Below are positions 2,624 to 38,727 of a stretch of DNA of 64,000 nt, piece after piece. The stretch covers positions 3,854-67,853 of the forward strand of contig JAHFHU010000003.1 in assembly GCA_023246755.1 (NCBI GenBank), written 5' to 3'. A model generated the notes under the pieces. It saw only the letters and a program-made list of their open reading frames with translations, made no database searches and was not told where the DNA came from. A program made the position numbers and the translations under genes. Within the stretch, counting starts at the first letter, position 1. Every line of letters begins with the position of its first letter. Source of the DNA: Candidatus Magasanikiibacteriota bacterium (GTDB lineage: Bacteria > Patescibacteriota > Patescibacteriia > Magasanikbacterales > 2-02-FULL-50-9b).

Positions 2624-3079
2624 ATGAATAATTTTAAGCGTGGCGGCGGTGGTTTTAAGCCAACGGGCGGGGGAGGCAGTCGGTTTGGCGGAGGCAGTGG
2701 TTTTGGTGGCGGAGCTGGACGAGGACGCGGCGATGATCGCGACGGTGGTCGCCCTGCTATGCACAAAGCAATTTGTGCACGATGTGAAAATTCATGCGAA
2801 GTTCCATTTAAGCCAAATGGGGTAAAGCCGATTTTTTGCAATGACTGTTTTGGCAAGGACGCATACGGGAATCAGAATGCACCGGATCGTGCGGAACGTC
2901 GTCCATCATTTCAGCGTGAAAGTTTTGGTGGTGATCGCGCACCTGCAGCTGCTCCCGCATCGAATAATAACGCTGCATTACTTGTTGAATTGAAAGCGAT
3001 GAACTCAAAGCTTGACGCACTCGTGAAAATTTTGACACCTGAAGAAAAACCAGCGCGCGCAAAAAAAGCGGCGAAATAA
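2624..3079 (+). CDS. glycine-rich CxxC-x17-CxxC zinc-ribbon protein
   Basis: N-terminal GGGGF/GGGSG repeats followed by CARCENSCEVPFKPNGVKPIFCNDCF (CxxC...CxxC). Confidence 0.6.
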   Translation: MNNFKRGGGGFKPTGGGGSRFGGGSGFGGGAGRGRGDDRDGGRPAMHKAICARCENSCEVPFKPNGVKPIFCNDCFGKDAYGNQNAPDRAERRPSFQRESFGGDRAPAAAPASNNNAALLVELKAMNSKLDALVKILTPEEKPARAKKAAK

Positions 3080-3085
3080 ATTCAG

Positions 3086-3892
3086 ATGAAACCGCGGCTG
3101 CTGTTATTGACCAATACGGACAACAGCAGCCCGGAGGAGGATAAATATCTCGCGGATTTTCTGCGAGATATTTTTGATGTGACGCGCGTGCATCCGCGCG
3201 ATGCGGGCGAATTTGAGGATGTGGCTGATTTGATTTTGGTGCGGAATATTTGGCCGACAGAAACGCAGTTGCCGGAATTGCACGCGATGTATGCGCGGTT
3301 CGCGCGGAAAAATTTGTGTGTGTACAATCCATTTATTGGGCACGGGGATATGCAGGGTAAAAAATATTTGCCTGAATTGTGGCGGTTGGGGTATCCGGTG
3401 ATTCCGTCGGTTGAGCGGGTGAGTGAGTTGGGCGCGTTGCCGTTGACCGAAAATTTTATGGTGAAGCCGCTATTTGGGGGGAGTAGTTTTGGCGTGAAAA
3501 AAATTGCGCGATCGAAACTTGAGGCGATGCCATTGACCGATCACATCATTCAGCCATTTTTGCAAATCGAAAAAGAAATTTCATTTTATTTTATCGACAA
3601 CGAGTTACAGCATGTTCTTGCGACGCGCGGCGACCGATGGAATCTCCAGTTTTACGACGCAACAGACGAACAAAAAATGATCGCGCAGAATTTTGTCCAG
3701 TGGAACTCGCTTCCGCGTGGAATTCAGCGCATCGATTTTGCGTTGACCTTTGATGGCGAATTTTTGCTCATGGAGATTGAGGATTGGTGCCCTTTTTTAT
3801 CGTTGCGGGGGCTTGATGCAGCGCGGTCAGCCTTGTTTTTTGAGGCCATTAGGGGCGCTCTTTTGCGCGCGATTTTTTTTGCAAATGATTAA
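3086..3892 (+). CDS. ATP-grasp domain protein (RimK-like ligase fold)
   Basis: MVKPLFGGSSFGVKKI matches the ATP-grasp vvKP..gs.G.gv motif. Rest of the protein has weak similarity. Confidence 0.45.
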   Translation: MKPRLLLLTNTDNSSPEEDKYLADFLRDIFDVTRVHPRDAGEFEDVADLILVRNIWPTETQLPELHAMYARFARKNLCVYNPFIGHGDMQGKKYLPELWRLGYPVIPSVERVSELGALPLTENFMVKPLFGGSSFGVKKIARSKLEAMPLTDHIIQPFLQIEKEISFYFIDNELQHVLATRGDRWNLQFYDATDEQKMIAQNFVQWNSLPRGIQRIDFALTFDGEFLLMEIEDWCPFLSLRGLDAARSALFFEAIRGALLRAIFFAND

Positions 3893-27500: not shown

Positions 27501-27580
27501 AGCGTGAAAGTGTAATTAGTAAGCTCACAAGTTTCTTTGAAAGGTTCTTCGATATTTCTGGTGGAAAGTTTTCAGATTAA
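24524..27580 (+). CDS. hsdR: Type I restriction enzyme R subunit (SF2 helicase + nuclease)
   Basis: Walker A HTTGSGKTLTSF, DEAH-box FDECHRSQ, 1018 aa, directly follows hsdS. Confidence 0.9.
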   Translation: MPNNKYNLVAENPQSTVVGEYVAEGVRVAHYQSEADLERAFIKQLETQAYEYLPITSEADLILNLRKQLGKLNDFTFTDSEWEHFFVSELANPNQSIAEKTSTIQEDHIKNLTREDGTTKNVYLIKKDNIHDNSLQVINQYATEDGQRANRYDVTVLVNGLPLVHIELKRRGVAIAEAFNQINRYSRESFWAASGLFEYVQLFIISNGTHTKYYSNTVRSEHIKEAGEGAVKKGKRSSNSFEFTSWWADATNRPITDLMDFGKTFFAKHALLNILTKYCVFTTDRQLLVMRPYQIVATERILSRIEVSTNYKKLGTVEAGGYIWHTTGSGKTLTSFKTAQLVSKLSYVDKVIFVVDRKDLDYQTMREYDKFEKGAANSNTSTAVLTRQLGDSNSHIIITTIQKLDRFIGRNAGHAIFDGHVVLIFDECHRSQFGDMHAAITKTFKNYNLFGFTGTPIFAKNASAGGRPELKTTEQAFGEKLHTYTIVNAIADKNVLPFKVDYVSTVREAENIEDAQVRDIDREAVLASPERLANIVGYIREHFDQKTKRNSFYKLNDRRLAGFNSIFAVSSIDVAKKYYAEFKKQLDGVPSDKQLKVATIYSFGVNDEDADGMIDENSEDTNGLDVSSRDFLDSAITDYNAMFGTSYDTSSEKFQNYYKDVSLKMKNREIDVLIVVNMFLTGFDATTLNTLWVDKNLRLHGLLQAFSRTNRILNSVKAFGNIVCFRNLEKATNESIALFGNKEAGGVVLLKSYDEYYNGFKDGDKEVRGYASLVAELTEKFPIGEQILGEQNQKDFIKLYGGILRVRNILTTFDEFIGNEILSERDVQDYHSMYIDLYNEFRKGAEIEQENINDDLVFEMELIKQVEINIDFVLALIKRYHEDHNQDREILADINKAIDSSVELRNKKDLINQFITSLDIHSVVEEDWQKFVDKKKIEELEKIIDNEGLDHDATFAFVRNSFRDGSVATTGTAITKVLPPVTRFSPTGERTQKRESVISKLTSFFERFFDISGGKFSD

Positions 27581-27587
27581 ATCTGTA

Positions 27588-29051
27588 ATGAAACACATGT
27601 CTGCTTCCTTCACCCCCTCCCTCTTCTACAAATTCTCCACCTGCCCGCACTGGATCTGGCACGATTTTTTCGGTAACCCCGCAAATAAAATCGAAGTCCC
27701 AGCACTCGCGCAAAAGTTGATCGATCAGGGTGTATTGCATGAAGAAGAATATATCAAAGGATTGAATTTTGTTTCAGTGACATTAAAAAATTCAACCGAT
27801 GCGTTCGCGGCAACGCTCGCGCTTATGCAAAGCGGCACGGATCTGATTTATCAGGGTGAAATTCAGTACGAAGAAAACAACATTTTGTACCATGGCCGCC
27901 CTGACCTGCTCGAAAAGCGACCAGGCACGTCGAAATTCGGCGCCTACTATTACGCGCCCATTGATATTAAATCGTCGAGCAAGCTCGATAAGAAACATAA
28001 GCTACAACTGACGCTCTACGCAACTATTCTTGAACAGATGCAGGGCGTGTTTCCCGAGGAGACGGCGATCATCAATCGCGCGCACGAACGCATTCCATTC
28101 ACCATCGCGCCAAAAGATCGCGCGGAAACGCAGAAACAAATGAGCAGCATTCTTGCAGTGATGTCAGGCGAAAAGCCGCCGCTCAAACTCGCAGGCAGTT
28201 GCAAACAAAGTCCGTGGTACCCTGAGTGCGTGCACGATGCAGAGGAAGCGCAGGATATCGCGCTGCTGTATAAGCTCGACAATCGCGCGTGTGCGGCGCT
28301 GCGTGCAGAGGGGATTGTATCGATTCATGATGCGGCGCAGATGGACATCGTACGTCTGCCAAAAATTCCATTCGCGAGTCAGAAAATTCTTGCGCGCGTG
28401 AAAGTGCAGGCGCAGTCGCTTCTCGATGGAGAATTGAAATGGCTTGCGCGCCCATCGCTGCCACACGCGCCGCTCCAACTCTATTTTGATATTGAAGGCG
28501 ATCCACTGCTCGGCGTCGATTACTTGTTCGGGTTGTGGGTGTGCGGCGACGCAGCGCACGCCTACGCACACACGGGTCACGTTCGGTTCGACGCGGAGTC
28601 GAGCGATTATTTTATTTATTTTGTTGCAGAGACGCCGGAGGATGAAGGGGCGATGTGGGCCGCGTTTTTGCAGTGGATCGAGGCGCTGCCGACGGGGAAG
28701 TATGACACGTTTCACTACGCAGATTACGAACGTTCACACACCGGCGCGCTTGCTGCGAAATACGGCACGTCCGCGGCGTTCGAGGAATTTGTGACGACGT
28801 ATGTTGACCTGATGAAGGTGATGAGCGCGTCTGTTGTGTTGCCATTATATTTTTATTCGATCAAAGATATCGCAAAATCTCGTTTCTTGAATTTCAAATG
28901 GCGTCACGAAAAAGCAGGTGGCGCGCAAAGTATTTTTTGGTACGAAGAATGGCTCGAGAAACGCGACTCGGGGATTTTAAAAGATATTGTAGACTATAAC
29001 GAGGACGATGTGCGGGCGACGAAGGCGTTGTATGGGTGGCTAATAACTTAA
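27588..29051 (+). CDS. RecB-family nuclease, TM0106-type (N-terminal PD-(D/E)xK/Cas4-like domain plus C-terminal DnaQ-like fold)
   Basis: N-terminal FSTCPHWIW, GRPDLL, IDIKSS motifs; C-terminal LYFDIEGDP (DxE exonuclease-like). Start set at the MKHMS ATG just after the hsdR stop. Confidence 0.5.
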   Translation: MKHMSASFTPSLFYKFSTCPHWIWHDFFGNPANKIEVPALAQKLIDQGVLHEEEYIKGLNFVSVTLKNSTDAFAATLALMQSGTDLIYQGEIQYEENNILYHGRPDLLEKRPGTSKFGAYYYAPIDIKSSSKLDKKHKLQLTLYATILEQMQGVFPEETAIINRAHERIPFTIAPKDRAETQKQMSSILAVMSGEKPPLKLAGSCKQSPWYPECVHDAEEAQDIALLYKLDNRACAALRAEGIVSIHDAAQMDIVRLPKIPFASQKILARVKVQAQSLLDGELKWLARPSLPHAPLQLYFDIEGDPLLGVDYLFGLWVCGDAAHAYAHTGHVRFDAESSDYFIYFVAETPEDEGAMWAAFLQWIEALPTGKYDTFHYADYERSHTGALAAKYGTSAAFEEFVTTYVDLMKVMSASVVLPLYFYSIKDIAKSRFLNFKWRHEKAGGAQSIFWYEEWLEKRDSGILKDIVDYNEDDVRATKALYGWLIT

Positions 29052-29074
29052 GTTATATAAATGACGGGAGGTCT

Positions 29075-29100
29075 AATTATCCACAATTCAGTGGATAATT
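29075..29100. promoter_or_regulatory. perfect inverted pair of DnaA-box-like 9-mers (AATTATCCAC-aattca-GTGGATAATT) abutting a TTGACA-n17-TATAGT promoter
   Basis: TTATCCACA equals the consensus DnaA box. Promoter at ~29110..29139 precedes the NYN gene. Confidence 0.35.
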
Positions 29101-29202
29101 CATGCCTTGACACCAAAACTTTCTCGATCTATAGTTACTTCATCGTCGCCTGCTCCGCCGTCACTGGCCTGGGCAGGTTTTCCATATTATATTCTAAACA
29201 CT

Positions 29203-29838
29203 ATGAGGAGGGCATGTGTTTTTGTTGATGGGAGCAATTTCTATCATCGCGTTTTAAAAAATTTAGGTATTCAGGAGTCAAATTTTGATTTCAATGCATT
29301 TGCGCAATTTTTGGTTTCAAGCTATGCACCTTCTGAAAATCAGTTTCGACATTATTCTGGCGTCATCGCAGGAGTTTCATTTCATGAGATGTCAGACTCC
29401 GCAAAAGATCATCAGAAAACTATTCGGTCACTCATGAGTCTCGATTGTTGGTCAGTCATTACGGCAAAATTGAGAACTCGCAAGGAACATATAGTCATCG
29501 ATGATCGGGTGGATAATCATGTTCGATTGAAAGAGTTAGGTGTGGCCAAAATTTGTTTTTCAAGAGAGCGTGAAAAAACAATTGATATGAAAATCGGTCT
29601 TGATATGATGTTGGGCGCACTCGATAACCTCTACGATGTTGCAATTTTAATAAGTTCAGATTCAGATTTGGTACCCGTTTGTGAATTGGTAAAAAGCAGA
29701 TTTTGGAAACGTGTAGAATACGTTGGATTTCATATTATTGCACCAGACACCACTGTGCCGACAAAAGCTTTGATGTATGCAACTGATAGCCAAAGAATTT
29801 TTGGTCCTGATGATATTAAACGATTTGTCAGGCGATAA
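29203..29838 (+). CDS. NYN-domain (LabA-like PIN-fold) protein
   Basis: Start at MRRACVFVDGSNFYHRV (NYN DGxN motif). The upstream 32 codons of the track ORF overlap a promoter-like sequence. Confidence 0.55.
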   Translation: MRRACVFVDGSNFYHRVLKNLGIQESNFDFNAFAQFLVSSYAPSENQFRHYSGVIAGVSFHEMSDSAKDHQKTIRSLMSLDCWSVITAKLRTRKEHIVIDDRVDNHVRLKELGVAKICFSREREKTIDMKIGLDMMLGALDNLYDVAILISSDSDLVPVCELVKSRFWKRVEYVGFHIIAPDTTVPTKALMYATDSQRIFGPDDIKRFVRR

Positions 29839-29865
29839 GGTGTCTGATGTTATAATGTTTTTCAT

Positions 29866-30261
29866 ATGCCCCCCTTCCCCAAACTCTCCGCCCTCCTCAA
29901 AAAACACGCCAAAAATCCGCTCCTGACCCTCGTCACTACGGTGCCGGGTTCAAAGCAAACGGACAAACCGCAGCTGCATATTTATAGCAAAGCCGCGGTG
30001 GTGATCGAGAAGCGGCCGGCGCGACAAACGTTTGTCGTTGGAATTATTCAGCAAAAAAATCAGCTGGGGTTCTATAGTCTGGCGATGTACACGCATCCGG
30101 GTCAGATGGGCGATTTGAGCCCGCAGCTCAAAAAAGCGCTCAAAGGGAAATCATGTTTTTACATCACCGACGCAAACCTCACACCCGCCATGCTCGCCGA
30201 AATCGATGCGCACATTGCTAAGGCGATTGCGCTGTATAAAAAAGCGGGGTGGCTTGGATAA
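29866..30261 (+). CDS. hypothetical protein
   Basis: ORF with plausible codon usage; no motif recognised. Confidence 0.4.
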   Translation: MPPFPKLSALLKKHAKNPLLTLVTTVPGSKQTDKPQLHIYSKAAVVIEKRPARQTFVVGIIQQKNQLGFYSLAMYTHPGQMGDLSPQLKKALKGKSCFYITDANLTPAMLAEIDAHIAKAIALYKKAGWLG

Positions 30262-30344
30262 GTAGCTGTTGTGTGTACGCCAATGGATATTAAGCTATTT
30301 GTTGTATAATTGGGTTTAGAACAATAATACAACAACTTACACCT

Positions 30345-30797
30345 ATGCCCTGCATTTTTTGCTCCATCGTTTCCGGCGAAGCGCCGTCACACAAAATTTG
30401 GGAGGATGAAAATCATCTCGCGTTTTTGTCGATTTTTCCGAACACGCGCGGCACGACCGTGGTGATTCCGAAACAGCATGCGGCGAGTTATGTTTTTGCC
30501 GTCGCGCCAAAAATCATGCACGACCTGATGGATGCGGCGGCGAGAGTCGCGGCGCTGATCGACACGCGCCTCCCGAATGTCGGTCGCACCGGCCTCATCT
30601 TCGAAGGTTTCGGGGTCAACCATTTACACGCAAAATTATTTCCGCTCCACGACACCGCGGCACCCGATTGGCAACCGGTTAATTCGTCTGTGACCAAAAT
30701 GTTTGAAACCTACGAAGGCTATCTTTCGTCGCACGATGGCCCGCGCGCGGATGACAACGAGCTCGCGGAAATCGCGCGGGTGTTGCGTGGCACTTGA
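30345..30797 (+). CDS. HIT-family (histidine triad) hydrolase
   Basis: N-terminal CIFCSI..HKIWEDE and a histidine triad variant VNHLHAKLFP. Confidence 0.8.
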   Translation: MPCIFCSIVSGEAPSHKIWEDENHLAFLSIFPNTRGTTVVIPKQHAASYVFAVAPKIMHDLMDAAARVAALIDTRLPNVGRTGLIFEGFGVNHLHAKLFPLHDTAAPDWQPVNSSVTKMFETYEGYLSSHDGPRADDNELAEIARVLRGT

Positions 30798-30881
30798 CAA
30801 AAATAACAACACGTTATATATTTTATTCACGCATCGCCGCTAGGCGTCCTCTCCTCCTCACAAGGGAGGAGAGTTTATTTT
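30793..30881 (+). promoter_or_regulatory. promoter (TTGACA-n17-TATATT) plus structured leader (HP1 CGCC-gcta-GGCG; HP2 CTCTCCTCC-n6-GGAGGAGAG followed by a U-tract) preceding the PemK-like gene
   Basis: Read from sequence. Architecture and hairpins are conserved with compensatory changes at 31583..31680. Confidence 0.4.
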
Positions 30882-30891
30882 TAAGGGGGGT

Positions 30892-31290
30892 ATGTATCAA
30901 AAAGATTTTGACCAATGGAGTAAAGTCAAAAAACAAATAAACGTTAAAAAAGTTCGAATCACTATTCGGTCAGGCGATGTTCGGTGGATTATTTTTGGCG
31001 TAAATGTTGCAAGTGAAATCGACGGTAAGGGGGATTTATTTTTACGACCGGCTTTGATACTTCATGTGATTGGTGCGGATCTCGCGCTTGTCGTTCCTCT
31101 AACTTCGAAGCAAAAAAATATTCCCGGATATATACCATTTGCATTGAAGAAAAAATTTTGTTCACTATGTCTCCACCAAATAAAAGTAGTTTCACAAAAT
31201 CGCATGTTGTATCGACTTGAGCATGTTGCAGATAGCAGAGTGTATGAAGTGCAAAGACACGTCATGGATTTTTACGGGTTTCATAGATAA
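30892..31290 (+). CDS. PemK/MazF-fold endoribonuclease toxin-like protein (orphan, copy 1)
   Basis: SGDVRWIIFGVNVASEIDGKGDLFLRPALIL...LVVPLTSKQK...HQIKVVSQNRMLYRLEHV matches Kid/PemK/MazF motifs (GD[IV]W, RPxLIL, PLTS). Confidence 0.65.
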   Translation: MYQKDFDQWSKVKKQINVKKVRITIRSGDVRWIIFGVNVASEIDGKGDLFLRPALILHVIGADLALVVPLTSKQKNIPGYIPFALKKKFCSLCLHQIKVVSQNRMLYRLEHVADSRVYEVQRHVMDFYGFHR

Positions 31291-31316
31291 AGTTAAAGTG
31301 GCGTATACTATGCCTC

Positions 31317-31574
31317 ATGTACCACCTCTACCTTCTCCGCTGCGCCGATGACACGCTGTATGCCGGCATCACGACCGACCTTGTGCGGCGCGTCGAAGAA
31401 CATAGCACATCGGCGCGCGGTGCAAAGTACACGCACGCGCGGCGGCCGGTCGAACTCGTGTACAGCAAAAAATTTCGCACGCGCTCGACTGCATCACGCG
31501 CGGAATATAAACTCAAACAACTTTCGCGCGACGAAAAATTAGCGCTCATCAGTTTTCCACAAAAAAGTGGATAA
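31317..31574 (+). CDS. GIY-YIG nuclease superfamily protein (UPF0213/YhbQ-like)
   Basis: YHLYLLRCADDTLYAGITTDLVRRVEEH..GAKYT..RRPVELVY is a classic GIY-YIG small protein. Confidence 0.75.
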   Translation: MYHLYLLRCADDTLYAGITTDLVRRVEEHSTSARGAKYTHARRPVELVYSKKFRTRSTASRAEYKLKQLSRDEKLALISFPQKSG

Positions 31575-31582
31575 CCACGGCT

Positions 31583-31680
31583 TGACAAAATTTTTGTTCC
31601 GTGGAATAGTGTAAATACATTTCGCCGTTAGGCGCCCGAGCCTCCTCCATCACGGGGGAGGTGCATACTTTTAAGGAGGG
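31583..31680 (+). promoter_or_regulatory. promoter (TTGACA-n17-AATAGT) plus structured leader (HP1 CGCC-gtta-GGCG; HP2 CCTCCTCC-n5-GGGGGAGG followed by a U-tract) preceding PemK-like copy 2
   Basis: Paralogous to 30793..30881. Stems are conserved by covariation rather than by sequence identity. Confidence 0.4.
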
Positions 31681-31682
31681 GT

Positions 31683-32558
31683 ATGTATCAAAAAAATTTT
31701 GAGCAGTGGAATTTAATTAAGCAGCAGATAAATTATGAAAACCGTTCAGTACGAATTCGTGCGGGCGATGTTTGTTGGATTTTTGTTGGTGTAAATGTTG
31801 GGAGTGAAATTGATGGTAAGGGCGAATCTTTTCTTCGCCCAGCTTTGATTTTGAATGTTATGGGTGATGATTTGGTTCTAATCATTCCTCTCACGTCAAA
31901 ACAAAAACAATTACCGCGCTACATTCCACTCGAAATTCAAGATCGTACGAGCTTTTTATGTCTTCATCAATTAAAGGTAGTTTCTCAAAATCGTATTTTA
32001 CGTCGTATCGAGCATATTTCTGACTCGCGTCTCGCCTCCGTTCGTCATAACGTGCTATTATTCCACAACTTCACACCGACGCCTAAACCAAAACCTATGG
32101 CTCACATTCACGAACTCATCGATTTCACCGTGTCTTGCATGATTCTTCATCCAACCGAACCAAAAATTTTGTTAATTAATCACAAAATACTCAACACATG
32201 GCTGCCAATTGGTGGGCACATCGAACTCAATGAAGATCCGGACGAAGCGATCGCACGCGAAGTCGCTGAAGAGTGTGGTCTTCCGATCGAAATGATTTCG
32301 CGACGTCACTCCGGCGAATATCCGGAAACTAAAATGTTGCTCATCCCTGAAACTGTTGACATCCACACGATCAACACCGCGCACCGCCACATCAATTTCG
32401 GCTACCACGCACGTGCGCTCAGCGCAAACCCAAAACTTGCGCCCGAGGAGCATCACGATATTCAATGGTTCGGTGCAGACGAACTTGCCGACCCGAATTT
32501 TAACATCAAGCCCGCGGTCCGCGTCTACGCACTTGAATTTTTGCAAAAAAATGCGTAA
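31683..32558 (+). CDS. PemK/MazF-fold toxin-like domain fused to a C-terminal NUDIX hydrolase domain
   Basis: Residues 1-125 are paralogous to 30892..31290 (about 60 % identity). After a PTPKPKP linker comes the Nudix box GGHIELNEDPDEAIAREVAEECGL (GX5EX7REUXEEXGU). Confidence 0.6.
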   Translation: MYQKNFEQWNLIKQQINYENRSVRIRAGDVCWIFVGVNVGSEIDGKGESFLRPALILNVMGDDLVLIIPLTSKQKQLPRYIPLEIQDRTSFLCLHQLKVVSQNRILRRIEHISDSRLASVRHNVLLFHNFTPTPKPKPMAHIHELIDFTVSCMILHPTEPKILLINHKILNTWLPIGGHIELNEDPDEAIAREVAEECGLPIEMISRRHSGEYPETKMLLIPETVDIHTINTAHRHINFGYHARALSANPKLAPEEHHDIQWFGADELADPNFNIKPAVRVYALEFLQKNA

Positions 32559-32612
32559 CCGTCTATAATCGCGCGGGGAGTCTCGCAAGAGGCACCCCCG
32601 TTTATTTTTTCT

Positions 32613-33635
32613 ATGACCCTCGTCAACAACGCGGCTGCAGTTATCGCCGAAAATATCACGAAATCATACGGCTCTGTTCACGCGCTTTCGGGCGTAAGTC
32701 TTACGATTCCGTACGGCACGGTGCTTGGCCTACTTGGCCCGAACGGCGCGGGTAAAACCACGTTCGTGCGCGCACTCACAACGCTTCTTAAACCAGATAG
32801 CGGCCGCGCAATCATCGCGGGTTACGACATCGCAACTGATGGCGACATGGTTCGGAGCGTCATTGGCCTCACTGGTCAATTTGCTGCAATCGACGAATAT
32901 TTAACGGGCCGTGAGAATATCGAATTGGTCGGTAAGCTGTATCATTGGCCACGCGCGGCAATTAAAACGCGTGCAATCGAGTTGCTTGAAAAATTCGATC
33001 TCACCGACGCCGCAGATCGCTCATCAAAAACATATTCCGGCGGCATGCGTCGTCGTCTCGACCTTGCGATGAGCCTATTTAACAATCCAAAAGTTTTATT
33101 TCTTGACGAACCAACGACCGGACTTGACCCACAAAGTCGCATCGCACTCTGGCAAATTATCAAAGAACTTGTTGCGCAGGGGACAACCGTTTTGCTCACG
33201 ACGCAATATCTCGAAGAGGCGGATCATCTCGCGGACAATATCGTCGTGATCAATCACGGGCGCATCATCGCGGCCGGCACACCCGAAGAACTCAAAAAAG
33301 AAATTGGTGGCGACGTGCTCGAGGTCCATGTGCAACAGATCAGCGACACCGCGCGTGTCGCCGCGCTTCTCGCGCCGCTCGCACACGAAGCGCCACACGT
33401 GCAGCACGAGCTCGGGATGATCAGCATTCCGGCGGTGAGTGGCGCGGGAATTCTTGTTGAAGCGGTGCGTTTACTTGACGCTGCACACATCAGCATCGCA
33501 GATATAGCACTCCGTCGGCCAACGCTCGACGATGTGTTTCTCGCGTTGACCGCGCATGGGGGTGCTGACGCTGCGCCCGCGCCCACAACAGAATCCGTTG
33601 ATGTTGCTCCAAATTTTTTCAACCCAAATCTATGA
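32613..33635 (+). CDS. ABC transporter ATP-binding protein (ABC-2/DrrA-like)
   Basis: Walker A GPNGAGKTT, signature YSGGMRRRL, Walker B LFLDEPTTGLD. Confidence 0.85.
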   Translation: MTLVNNAAAVIAENITKSYGSVHALSGVSLTIPYGTVLGLLGPNGAGKTTFVRALTTLLKPDSGRAIIAGYDIATDGDMVRSVIGLTGQFAAIDEYLTGRENIELVGKLYHWPRAAIKTRAIELLEKFDLTDAADRSSKTYSGGMRRRLDLAMSLFNNPKVLFLDEPTTGLDPQSRIALWQIIKELVAQGTTVLLTTQYLEEADHLADNIVVINHGRIIAAGTPEELKKEIGGDVLEVHVQQISDTARVAALLAPLAHEAPHVQHELGMISIPAVSGAGILVEAVRLLDAAHISIADIALRRPTLDDVFLALTAHGGADAAPAPTTESVDVAPNFFNPNL

Positions 33636-35661: not shown

Positions 35662-36087
35662 ATGATGACGCATAGGAGGGTGCGATTGTTTGGGTATGTG
35701 GTTATTGAACGTGGAGTTGGAGAATTTGGGCCGATATATTCTGGCATTCGCGGGCAGGACGCAGTGAATTTTTTGTTGCAGGCAAAATCAGGTGAGGTAT
35801 TGGCTGCTTTTATGCATTCGGTTCTTGGGCCGATTGATTTGGTTTGGGGAGTAGAAACGGTTGGTGAGCGAAAGGGTTTTGGTCTTGCAAAAATTATCCA
35901 AAAACATCCCGAAGCGATTCATAGTCTGACAGAAGCGATAAAAAATAGCGAAATTGTTGAGGAACTTCCGGATAGACGTGTTCTTTTGTCACGTGATCAT
36001 GATCAGCAGTCCGTTATTGATTTGCAGTTTAACAATAAAAGTAAAAAGTGGTTGCTTACGTCGTATTTCCTTATAAAAATAACTTGA
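35662..36087 (+). CDS. hypothetical protein
   Basis: ORF only. Confidence 0.35.
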   Translation: MMTHRRVRLFGYVVIERGVGEFGPIYSGIRGQDAVNFLLQAKSGEVLAAFMHSVLGPIDLVWGVETVGERKGFGLAKIIQKHPEAIHSLTEAIKNSEIVEELPDRRVLLSRDHDQQSVIDLQFNNKSKKWLLTSYFLIKIT

Positions 36088-37655: not shown

Positions 37656-38117
37656 ATGAGCAAGGAGGGGGTTGTTTTTGATTTTTCGTATAGAAAAAGC
37701 GGAGAAGTTACACCCGCAAAAGCGTTGGCATATCGAATCGATCCGGTTACGCGTCGGATTATTGAAGTGATCAAGCCTCGAACACATGAGTTTGAAAATA
37801 TTTTGCGTGCAACAGTCAAAGCGTTGCTCAAACAGAATAAAAAATTTCCAACAAATAAAGATGTCTTTGTTTTAATTGAGCATGGTTTGCACGCCACACA
37901 CGATTTTGAAGAGTGTGATGTGGACAATCGAGCAAAAACAATTTTGGACGCGCTTAAAAATGCTGTGTACCAAGATGACAAGCAAGTTTCAGTTTTGTGG
38001 ACGTGTAAAAAATTTTTGCGTTCCCAGCAAGAAAGTTATTTTACTATTTCAATCTGCATTTTGAATGTTGTAAAACGTCAGCAGATTATGCGAATGATGA
38101 AGTGTGTCGATGTTTAA
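37656..38117 (+). CDS. RusA-like Holliday junction resolvase (phage-type endodeoxyribonuclease)
   Basis: ECDVDNRAKTILDALKNAVYQDDKQV matches the RusA D-x-DN...K..DAL...DD-x-V catalytic motif. Confidence 0.5.
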   Translation: MSKEGVVFDFSYRKSGEVTPAKALAYRIDPVTRRIIEVIKPRTHEFENILRATVKALLKQNKKFPTNKDVFVLIEHGLHATHDFEECDVDNRAKTILDALKNAVYQDDKQVSVLWTCKKFLRSQQESYFTISICILNVVKRQQIMRMMKCVDV

Positions 38118-38323: not shown

Positions 38324-38727
38324 TGGTGGAGATGCCGGGAATTGAACCCGGGTCGAAGAAAAAGGTCGCCCTCGGCCTACGTGTGTAGTCCGGTTAATTT
38401 TTACCTATGCGCGTCCATCAATCGGACGAAAAATACGCACACAGGAACTGTGTTGGTTTCGGTAACGTGCGCGACAGATAGCGCGCGACGAGACCTACAT
38501 TACTGTTTTATAACACCGCGCATCGGACCGTAATCGTCCGACGTCGATGGCATTACGTTCTTAGGCGAATGCTGGAACAAAAGTTGGTGCGAATGCGTTA
38601 GCAACCGCGGCTTTTGCACGTGCAAAAATATTTGCATCTGGGTTTTGCCCCGCGTTTTAACGAGAAACGAGACATTCCCGACACGCCCGTTCGAGTCTTC
38701 TTTCTCTCCTCGAAGCCTGTCATCCCC
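38324..38727 (-). ncRNA. ssrA: tmRNA (transfer-messenger RNA)
   Basis: Minus-strand 5' GGGGAUGACAGGCUUCGAGGAG... pairs with 3' ...GGGUUCAAUUCCCGGCAUCUCCACCA (tRNA-like domain, encoded CCA). Internal tag reading frame ...GCU AAC GCA UUC GCA CCA ACU UUU GUU CCA GCA UUC GCC UAA. smpB lies adjacent. Ends approximate. Confidence 0.8.

Follow-up and report, generated by a model that had tools for sequence, protein, structure and literature searches.

How is a MazF-type endoribonuclease gene kept in check when no protein antitoxin is encoded next to it? MazF toxins are textbook type II toxins, defined by their protein antidote, and the question is raised by a 64,000-nt stretch of contig JAHFHU010000003.1 (hereafter, the window) from assembly GCA_023246755.1 of a Candidatus Magasanikiibacteriota bacterium. 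The region of interest consists of two copies of a self-contained cassette, each composed of a promoter, a structured 5′ leader, and a gene for a MazF/PemK-type endoribonuclease. A first-pass annotation, made from the sequence letters alone, had described two neighboring PemK/MazF-type paralogs here, the second fused to a NUDIX hydrolase. Pfam searches bear this out: PemK_toxin was found in both open reading frames (ORFs), each passing the curated cut-off of 23.1 bits, and NUDIX in the second; the fold is that of MazF, and the PemK parts of the two ORFs are 58% identical over 130 amino acids (aa). As described below, nothing but the leader is conserved alongside this MazF subfamily, which lacks a conserved adjacent protein antitoxin gene.

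A covarying two-hairpin leader

Each of the two ORFs is preceded by a near-consensus sigma-70-like site, in agreement with the annotation, which had assigned a TTGACA-n17 promoter to each paralog (coordinates of all cassette features are collected in Table 1). Across homologous loci the geometry is fixed: TTGAC(A/T), 17 nt, an extended −10 element (TGnTAnAcT), 6 nt, and then the dinucleotide AC. The RNA is predicted to start ~5 nt before the first hairpin, P1. Because the leader motif is placed after this succession of −35 element, 17-nt spacer, extended −10 element, and 6 nt, it is predicted to constitute the 5′ end of the mRNA. A start codon could be identified for 63 distinct leaders, and there the second hairpin, P2, ends a median of 15 nt (range, 2 to 27) ahead of it. 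The whole 5′ untranslated region (UTR) is ~57 nt long, and the motif abuts the ribosome landing site. On the opposite strand, a promoter-like site (TTGATA-17-TAAACT, 9/12 matches) at 30900-30872 would yield an antisense RNA over leader 1; it is made of the conserved first codons and the U tract and seems, by eye, unconserved in the main-clade leader L005.

The leader had been read as a short CGCC-n4-GGCG hairpin followed by a longer one. Both hairpins were found in front of each paralog exactly where they had been placed, and both leaders fold, with z-scores of −3.0 to −5.0 relative to dinucleotide shuffles. When the full leader is folded together with 40 nt of the ORF, the predicted probabilities of formation are 0.96 for P1 and 0.99 for P2. 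Comparison of the 110 nt upstream of each homologue yielded the family consensus ACCAU-CGCC-GUAA-GGCG-UCA-[ACR...stem...YGU]-AAAU. P1 is a near-invariant 4–base pair (bp) CGCC/GGCG stem closed by a tetraloop, with pairs C-G, G-C, C-G, and C-G; a CGAC/GUCG variant occurs in two distant members, and there are two cases of G-U. A short linker, mostly UCA or UCC, connects P1 to P2, which is ~9 bp long (7 to 12) and whose sequence is free while its pairing is kept. The single-stranded 3′ tail is conserved as AAAU or AUAU. The loops of both hairpins vary, being mostly stable tetraloops (GUAA, GUUA, GUCA, UUCG, GCAA, and GAAA; AAUA also occurs).

RNAalifold analysis of 45 leaders recovered 13 base pairs, 10 of them with compensatory changes. 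A covariance model built from these leaders and run against all loci gave 100 matches, of which 91 are distinct. Among the 91 distinct leaders, 95.7% of cells are standard pairs, compared to 82.1% when the 3′ partners are shuffled, and pairing falls to 32 to 43% when partners are slid by one to three columns. Cells in which both partners have changed number 194 against 60 expected, and none of the 500 shuffles equaled any observed covariation measure. Nearly all of the covariation resides in P2, where 9/9 pairs vary on both sides. The annotation had based its case for a functional RNA on compensatory substitutions between the two window copies. There the signal is thin (by our own reading, about two double changes in P2), and it is the 91 homologous leaders that make the covariation solid and the leader a functional structured RNA.

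A second covariance model was built only from sequences outside the window’s clade. In the 64-kb window it has exactly two matches, which are the two leaders (37.9 bits, E = 5e-11, for copy 2; 27.3 bits, E = 6e-7, for copy 1). Because a model free of the clade finds both, the membership of the window leaders in the motif is not circular. Alignments inspected by eye gave no support for a closing helix between the 5′ and 3′ tails, for an attC-like recombination site, or for mimicry of ribosomal RNA or tRNA by the leader.

Association with pemK and search for a protein antitoxin

The distribution of the motif was followed from the protein and from the RNA. When one genome per species was scanned with a protein profile, PemK relatives were returned at 74 loci, almost all in Patescibacteria, also known as the candidate phyla radiation (CPR); a few come from metagenome-assembled genomes (MAGs) labeled Bacteroidota, Gammaproteobacteria, or Lentisphaeria. 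The closest genome homologues, those sharing at least 35% identity with the query, number 48, and 46 of them carry the motif just upstream on the gene’s strand; of the other two, one is at a contig end and one is an N-terminally truncated match. The motif is present in only 2 of 26 more distant homologues. In the reverse direction, a DNA-only search of metagenome contigs with the 20-nt motif core returned 65 loci, 53 of which have a PemK-profile match within 700 nt downstream. Those without PemK comprise three contig ends, two chance matches in GC-rich coding sequence, and, for the rest, decayed or deleted pemK genes. The association of leader and gene is thus tight from protein to RNA and from RNA to protein, and the motif recurs in ~100 related loci, which answers the question of conservation in homologues that the annotation had raised.

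In about one in seven of the motif loci from the DNA-only search, the leader is intact and pemK has decayed or been lost. Promoter and leader are intact with an internally deleted or truncated pemK at L182, L195, L214, L225/L234, L226, and L216; at L183/L232, by eye, pemK is gone and the leader now stands directly before a murC-like gene. A phage origin of the motif was considered and rejected: 105 viral stretches match the core pattern, about the number estimated by chance, and among 80 stretches the covariance model has three weak viral matches, at 18 to 20 bits versus 35 to 72 bits for the family.

Several loci have additional RNA features. L003 alone has an insert between motif and pemK, a strongly structured spacer of 220 nt (2782-3000) that contains a long, terminator-like GC-rich hairpin followed by Us. 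A SAM riboswitch lies ~500 nt upstream of the pemK cassette at L010 (2413-2510), and at L062 a distant pemK homologue is immediately followed by a group I intron (3499-3808).

The annotation had also claimed that no protein antitoxin is encoded upstream of either toxin. Searches that covered ORFs of at least 45 to 50 aa agree with this. In the window, promoter and leader fill the space between each toxin and the gene before it, where there is no ORF, and none of 10 small and medium ORFs elsewhere in the window has a MazE, AbrB, RHH, or PHD-type domain, so that a MazE/PemI-like partner did not come to light there either. At 69 homologous loci, all-against-all clustering of ORFs of at least 50 aa within 400 nt of pemK revealed no neighbor family common to more than four loci. 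PADLOC reported no defense-system match for the PemK proteins. Homologues of the broader family on Campylobacter pVir and on Helicobacter plasmids are likewise annotated as solitary toxins.

The PemK/MazF protein, its fusions, and its surroundings

The AlphaFold model of the first PemK protein has a predicted local distance difference test score (pLDDT) of 78.3. In a Foldseek comparison of the model with the Protein Data Bank (PDB), the best 50 matches listed are all of the MazF type (MazF, EndoA/YdcE, and MoxT), with a probability of 1.0 and template modeling (TM) scores of 0.59 to 0.77; Staphylococcus aureus, Bacillus subtilis, and Escherichia coli MazF are among those matched at this probability, and no ToxN or AbiQ structure is found among these 50. 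In sequence, the subfamily profile matches solved S. aureus MazF and B. subtilis EndoA weakly (E ~3e-3). In this profile alignment alone, the invariant R52 of the RP motif aligns with the RP arginine of both proteins, and the PL(T/S)(S/T)K segment aligns with their AITG/AITA segment. The RP arginine and the threonine of AITG/AITA are residues that we take to be catalytic in MazF and EndoA. Judged from the model and these alignments, the protein looks like an active MazF.

The subfamily is set apart from canonical MazF by an N-terminal helix of 24 residues (MYxKDFDxWNxVKK) and by five extra residues (GSEIDGKG) in the loop that leads up to the arginine. An exhaustive profile search of 1.84 billion cluster representatives returned 16 clusters at E ≤ 1e-30 and 1328 at E ≤ 1e-10; the former would roughly correspond to the motif-bearing subfamily and the latter to the wider family that shares the N-terminal extension. 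MazF of S. aureus and of B. subtilis cleaves at UACAU. Compared with synonymous-codon shuffles, the pemK coding sequences of 61 loci contain fewer ACAU and UACAU words (z of −4.5 and −3.8), a statistic that is inflated by the relatedness of the sequences and comes from a list dominated by out-of-frame stop words; no conclusion is drawn from it.

The 291-aa product of the second cassette combines PemK with a NUDIX domain in which GGHIELNEDPDEAIAREVAEECGL, as read from the translation, fits the Nudix box GX5EX7REUXEEXGU. No NCBIfam model reaches its cut-off on the NUDIX part, and its nearest solved structure is the uncharacterized NUDIX protein 3f6a. The annotation had allowed that the fusion might be a sequencing error. 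Two full-length two-domain relatives in other contigs, P0021 at 75% and P0022 at 66% identity, speak against this. The P0021 contig is partly syntenic with the window (NYN ... GIY-YIG, fusion), and P0022 lies in an unrelated context beside a type I restriction R subunit; the leader motif is present before both genes. On the strength of these sequences, the window fusion is a genuine, selectively maintained translational fusion and no sequencing error. Its linker, TPTPKPKP, is apparently a former intergenic spacer that came to be read through after stop-codon loss. Across the three orthologues the linker is variable, both in sequence and in length, but M(A/P)HIH is invariably the beginning of the NUDIX part; the fusion therefore arose by loss of a stop codon before a resident NUDIX gene and has been kept since. 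The GC content is 39 to 40% in the PemK part and 53% in the NUDIX part.

Other members of the family have also acquired C-terminal or N-terminal partners. P0158 is a distant PemK-NUDIX fusion that is an independent event because its NUDIX domain is a different one. Among further representative proteins (P0146, P0187, P0246, P0278, P0174, P0147, and P0160), PemK is joined to SnoaL, HNH, alpha/beta-hydrolase, or DUF3850/ASCH, or carries a GNAT domain at its N terminus; P0147 and P0160 have in common an unannotated C-terminal domain of ~110 aa. At L028 (2033-3307), from a Magasanikbacteria MAG, a 424-aa read-through ORF joins PemK to a complete RmlD (dTDP-4-dehydrorhamnose reductase). Stop-codon loss into a downstream gene seems to be recurrent in the window’s clade. 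A conserved and independently recurring PemK-NUDIX fusion suggests an unexplored functional link between RNA cleavage and pyrophosphohydrolase chemistry.

Table 1. Features of the two cassettes and adjoining genes, in window coordinates.
Feature	Position	Strand	Details
HIT gene	30345-30797	+	Upstream of cassette 1; Pfam
Promoter-like site, cassette 1	30794-30822	+	TTGACA-17-TATATT; 11/12 matches; predicted start ~30829 (A of ACGCAU)
Leader RNA motif, copy 1	30824-30880	+	Covariance-model match, 40.9 bits
P1, copy 1	30835-30846	+	CGCC GCUA GGCG; linker UC; fold prediction
P2, copy 1	30849-30873	+	10 bp, CUCUCCUCCU/GGGAGGAGAG; fold prediction
U-rich tract and SD-like sequence, copy 1	30874-30891	+	UUUAUUUUU then AAGGGGGG; P2 thereby terminator-like; clade-specific addition
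pemK/mazF-like endoribonuclease gene 1	30892-31290	+	Stand-alone, 132 aa; Pfam PemK_toxin, 31.7 bits, E = 1.9e-7
GIY-YIG gene	31317-31574	+	Between the two cassettes; Pfam, 60.8 bits
Promoter-like site, cassette 2	31582-31610	+	TTGACA-17-AATAGT, upstream TG; predicted start ~31617
Leader RNA motif, copy 2	31612-31670	+	Covariance-model match, 45.7 bits
P1, copy 2	31623-31634	+	CGCC GUUA GGCG; linker CCCGA; fold prediction
P2, copy 2	31640-31662	+	9 bp; fold prediction
PemK-NUDIX fusion ORF	31683-32558	+	291 aa; Pfam PemK_toxin, 39.9 bits, and NUDIX, 50.9 bits
PemK/MazF domain of fusion	31683-32072	+	aa 1-130; Pfam PemK_toxin, 39.9 bits
Linker	32073-32096	+	TPTPKPKP, 8 codons, in frame; joins PemK part to NUDIX part
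NUDIX hydrolase domain	32097-32558	+	Own ATG at 32097; Pfam, 50.9 bits; intact Nudix box GGHIELNEDPDEAIAREVAEECGL

In a survey of the ORFs of 29800-33400, the gene after the 291-aa ORF, on the plus strand, encodes an ABC-transporter ATPase. The annotation had grouped the HIT and GIY-YIG genes with the toxins into a nucleotide-centered module. This grouping did not stand, being a matter of local synteny: no neighbor is conserved across the pemK family, and GIY-YIG recurs as a neighbor only in one close relative, L247, and is not conserved in the 69 loci. Further upstream (27537-29838, plus strand) are a gene for a 504-aa Cas4-like and RNase_H_2 protein and an NYN-domain gene; the latter has a near-consensus promoter, TTGACA-17-TATAGT, at 29107, and an NYN gene is also found near the L247 fusion orthologue. 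Together, Cas4-like/RNase_H_2, NYN, HIT, GIY-YIG, PemK, and NUDIX form a run of nucleic-acid enzymes that is not conserved in the family. A 141-aa ORF with a PBECR1 domain (a barnase/EndoU/colicin E5-D/RelE-like nuclease domain) and a RusA resolvase gene lie just before the transfer-messenger RNA (tmRNA) gene (35662-36087 +, 37656-38117 +, and 38324-38727 −) and may be the remnant of an element integrated at ssrA. The GC content of the PemK cassette is below that of its flanks in 46/63 loci (median, −4.4 points; −10 to −12 points in window 30800-32200), which is compatible with horizontal spread of the cassette.

Possible roles of the leader and comparison with known systems

The window leaders carry several additions to the family consensus. 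Directly before the ATG are a U-rich tract and a sequence resembling a Shine-Dalgarno (SD) element, AAGGGGGG in copy 1 and AAGGAGGGG in copy 2. The signal after P2 is terminator-like in copy 1 and weaker in copy 2. In the minimum-free-energy fold of copy 2, the SD and AUG are taken up into a third local hairpin (31663-31686), and the unpaired probability of the initiation region is 0.31. The window’s clade comprises the two window copies and L002, L028, L046, L247, and L248, some of them labeled Magasanikbacteria, and the CCUCC/GGAGG composition of P2 is almost confined to it. An SD-like sequence is present in 8/63 leaders, seven of which belong to this clade, and a U-rich tail in 6/63 (window copy 1, L028, L046, L247, L248, and the unrelated L009). 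Outside the clade, P2 has an arbitrary sequence, and the tail is AAAU(N)UAUA-like, with neither U tract nor SD.

The reading to which we give the most weight, while holding it tentatively, is that the leader is the cognate cis RNA partner of the RNase and serves its feedback control in cis. The PemK dimer would recognize its own leader through the invariant P1, junction, and tail. Bound PemK, possibly cutting the single-stranded (AAAU) tail at the ribosome landing site, would limit its own translation and the life of its mRNA. Such RNA-based feedback would replace a MazE-type protein antidote and its transcriptional autoregulation. The window’s clade has acquired extra layers, namely a CCUCC/GGAGG-rich P2 that is terminator-like together with the U tract and a strong SD near the AUG; in the second cassette, the stop codon was lost in front of a resident NUDIX gene, creating the fusion.

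We infer recognition of the leader by PemK because P1, linker, and tail are invariant while the loops and the sequence of P2 are free, because the motif is restricted to one gene family, and because it sits at the edge of the ribosome-binding region. Variable loops combined with a conserved P1 stem, linker, and tail look like a protein-recognition site. Control in cis fits because most members produce the RNA and the mRNA in a 1:1 ratio. Some points weigh against feedback by PemK on its leader. Binding, cleavage, and toxicity of PemK are inferred, as is the link between protein and RNA. The words UAAAU, AAAU, UCAAC, and ACCAU, which are single-stranded in the leader, are not depleted in pemK coding sequences, and this gives the idea of a cleavage site no support. 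The motif does not in general hide the AUG by itself, the initiation region being moderately structured (median unpaired probability, 0.49). The invariance of P1 could reflect a tertiary contact or a small-molecule pocket instead of protein recognition. Last, a single motif copy covalently attached to the toxin mRNA is stoichiometrically poor for neutralizing many protein molecules, although it suits feedback.

An RNA antitoxin of the type III kind, that is, a leader freed by tail cleavage or by termination after P2 that blocks the active site of the MazF dimer, is the main rival, though unlikely on the present evidence. Loss of transcription would then free the toxin, a scheme most plausible for the window’s clade and L003. 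The order of promoter, structured RNA, and Kid/MazF-fold RNase fits the type III layout (PMC5086642). RNA and gene are separated by a terminator-like P2 with U tract in the clade that includes window copy 1, and at L003 by a terminator-like hairpin of its own within the 220-nt spacer; the 69 loci have no conserved protein antitoxin gene, and pemK often decays while the leader stays intact. On the other hand, there is no tandem repeat array, the toxin is MazF-like and not ToxN, CptN, or TenpN, and most members lack a terminator between RNA and ORF, so that RNA and mRNA are made 1:1.

Independence from the protein altogether, with the leader acting as a riboswitch for some ligand or as a 5′ stabilizer or standby-site structure for an mRNA without an SD, strikes us as quite unlikely. 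A motif that is compact, made of two helices with conserved nucleotides in junction and tail, and placed at the extreme 5′ end would suit such a cis element, as would the lack of an SD in most family members, and 5′-terminal hairpins are known mRNA stabilizers. However, riboswitches and stabilizers usually serve several gene classes, and this motif is confined to one gene family; a stabilizer needs no invariant P1 sequence; and no pseudoknot or alternative pairing is evident, both loops being freely variable.

The annotation had itself proposed a transcription attenuator or a switch that sequesters the ribosome-binding site through anti-SD/SD pairing, which as a general mechanism we regard as very unlikely. 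In the window’s clade, P2 is indeed rich in CCUCC/GGAGG, with a U tract and then a G-rich SD behind it, and the third hairpin of copy 2 points the same way. These features are absent from ~55/63 family members, and because they are nearly restricted to one small clade, attenuation or SD sequestration cannot be the conserved mechanism. Moreover, no conserved alternative (antiterminator) pairing was found, and, to judge from the fold, P2 with its 9 to 10 bp would outcompete the 5-bp CCUCC:GGGGG alternative. The anti-SD/attenuator reading therefore describes a lineage-specific elaboration rather than the conserved core. That the motif is no RNA at all but a DNA-level operator, a mobile-element end, or a terminator of the upstream gene is barely credible: P1 is a DNA palindrome just downstream of a promoter and the cassette has a lower GC content than its flanks, but P2 remains paired however its sequence changes, its G-U pairs being confined to the sense strand, the 100 matches are all single per cassette and those in genome loci all on the gene’s strand, the viral matches are few and weak, and the motif cannot terminate the upstream gene because it lies downstream of the −10 box.

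In searches of Rfam 15 with E values up to 10, no family matched either window leader, the leaders of 12 homologous motif-bearing loci, or three plasmid homologue loci (Campylobacter pVir, Helicobacter suis, and Ligilactobacillus salivarius), and searches at the gathering thresholds, covering the whole window and 20 distant-homologue loci, returned nothing on leaders. The nearest entry by name is RF02913, the pemK RNA motif, which we take to be a conserved, structured, and supposedly cis-regulatory RNA in the 5′ UTRs of pemK genes of Firmicutes, presumably belonging to the 224 candidates that Weinberg et al. 2017 put forward. The present motif likewise lies in the 5′ UTR of pemK genes; the comparison is one of name, accession, and model, the latter leaving the window leaders unmatched. 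The word pemK does not occur in the main text of Weinberg et al. 2017 (PMC5737381), and our literature searches found no described MazF/PemK leader in CPR and no type III-like MazF. Because it covaries strongly, is represented by ~100 examples, and has no counterpart in Rfam 15, the motif is a candidate RNA family; we rate it as a new family of leaders that belongs to a distinct MazF subfamily.

The hallmarks of type III toxin-antitoxin systems are tandem repeats, a terminator between RNA and gene, and ToxN, CptN, or TenpN toxins, with the RNA preceding a Kid-fold RNase (PMC5086642). The cassettes resemble ToxIN, CptIN, TenpIN, and AbiQ in having a Kid/MazF-like endoribonuclease behind a structured RNA in the same transcript, without a protein antitoxin. 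Between RNA and gene, the signal is terminator-like in window copy 1 and weaker in copy 2, and 6/63 leaders have a U-rich tail. They differ in that the RNA is a single two-hairpin unit and not a repeat array processed by the toxin, no tandem repeats being found in 29800-32700 by TRF and a repeat search. The toxin is also another one, PF02452 with a MazF fold: Pfam lists only PemK_toxin above cut-off for the toxin part, and no ToxN, CptN, or TenpN family. The analogy to ToxIN drawn in the first-pass annotation does not extend to the repeats or to the protein, which is MazF-like by both Pfam profile and fold.

The likeness to the type II systems MazEF and PemIK (Kis-Kid) is one of domain, fold, and the aligned arginine of the RP motif. 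In contrast to them, this PemK subfamily has no conserved MazE/PemI neighbor in the 69 loci, has its own promoter and structured leader, and carries the N-terminal helix and the GSEIDGKG insertion. In E. coli mazEFG, MazG, an NTP pyrophosphohydrolase, is encoded just downstream of mazF. There too a MazF-type toxin is linked to a nucleotide pyrophosphohydrolase, but the hydrolase of the window is a NUDIX protein translationally fused to the toxin, whereas MazG has another fold and is a separate protein. By analogy, the leader may be likened to the autoregulatory leaders of ribosomal proteins, which are also small structured 5′ UTR elements conserved with their gene at the ribosome landing site; the protein here is a nuclease, and its binding to the leader is putative.

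Set against these systems, the cassettes might represent a new class of toxin control, although we consider this doubtful: a MazF-fold RNase whose sole antidote or regulator would be a single, nonrepeated, 5′-terminal two-hairpin RNA carried by its own mRNA. Such cassettes would be widespread in CPR/Patescibacteria, and enzymes would repeatedly have been fused to the C terminus of the toxin (NUDIX at least twice independently), possibly coupling RNA cleavage to nucleotide or 5′-end chemistry. The RNA-protein pair, of ~55 nt and 130 aa, is directly testable. If true, such control would explain how “orphan” MazF genes are tolerated in the tiny genomes of CPR bacteria, and a MazF subfamily with a specific leader RNA instead of a protein antidote would blur the boundary between type II and type III systems.

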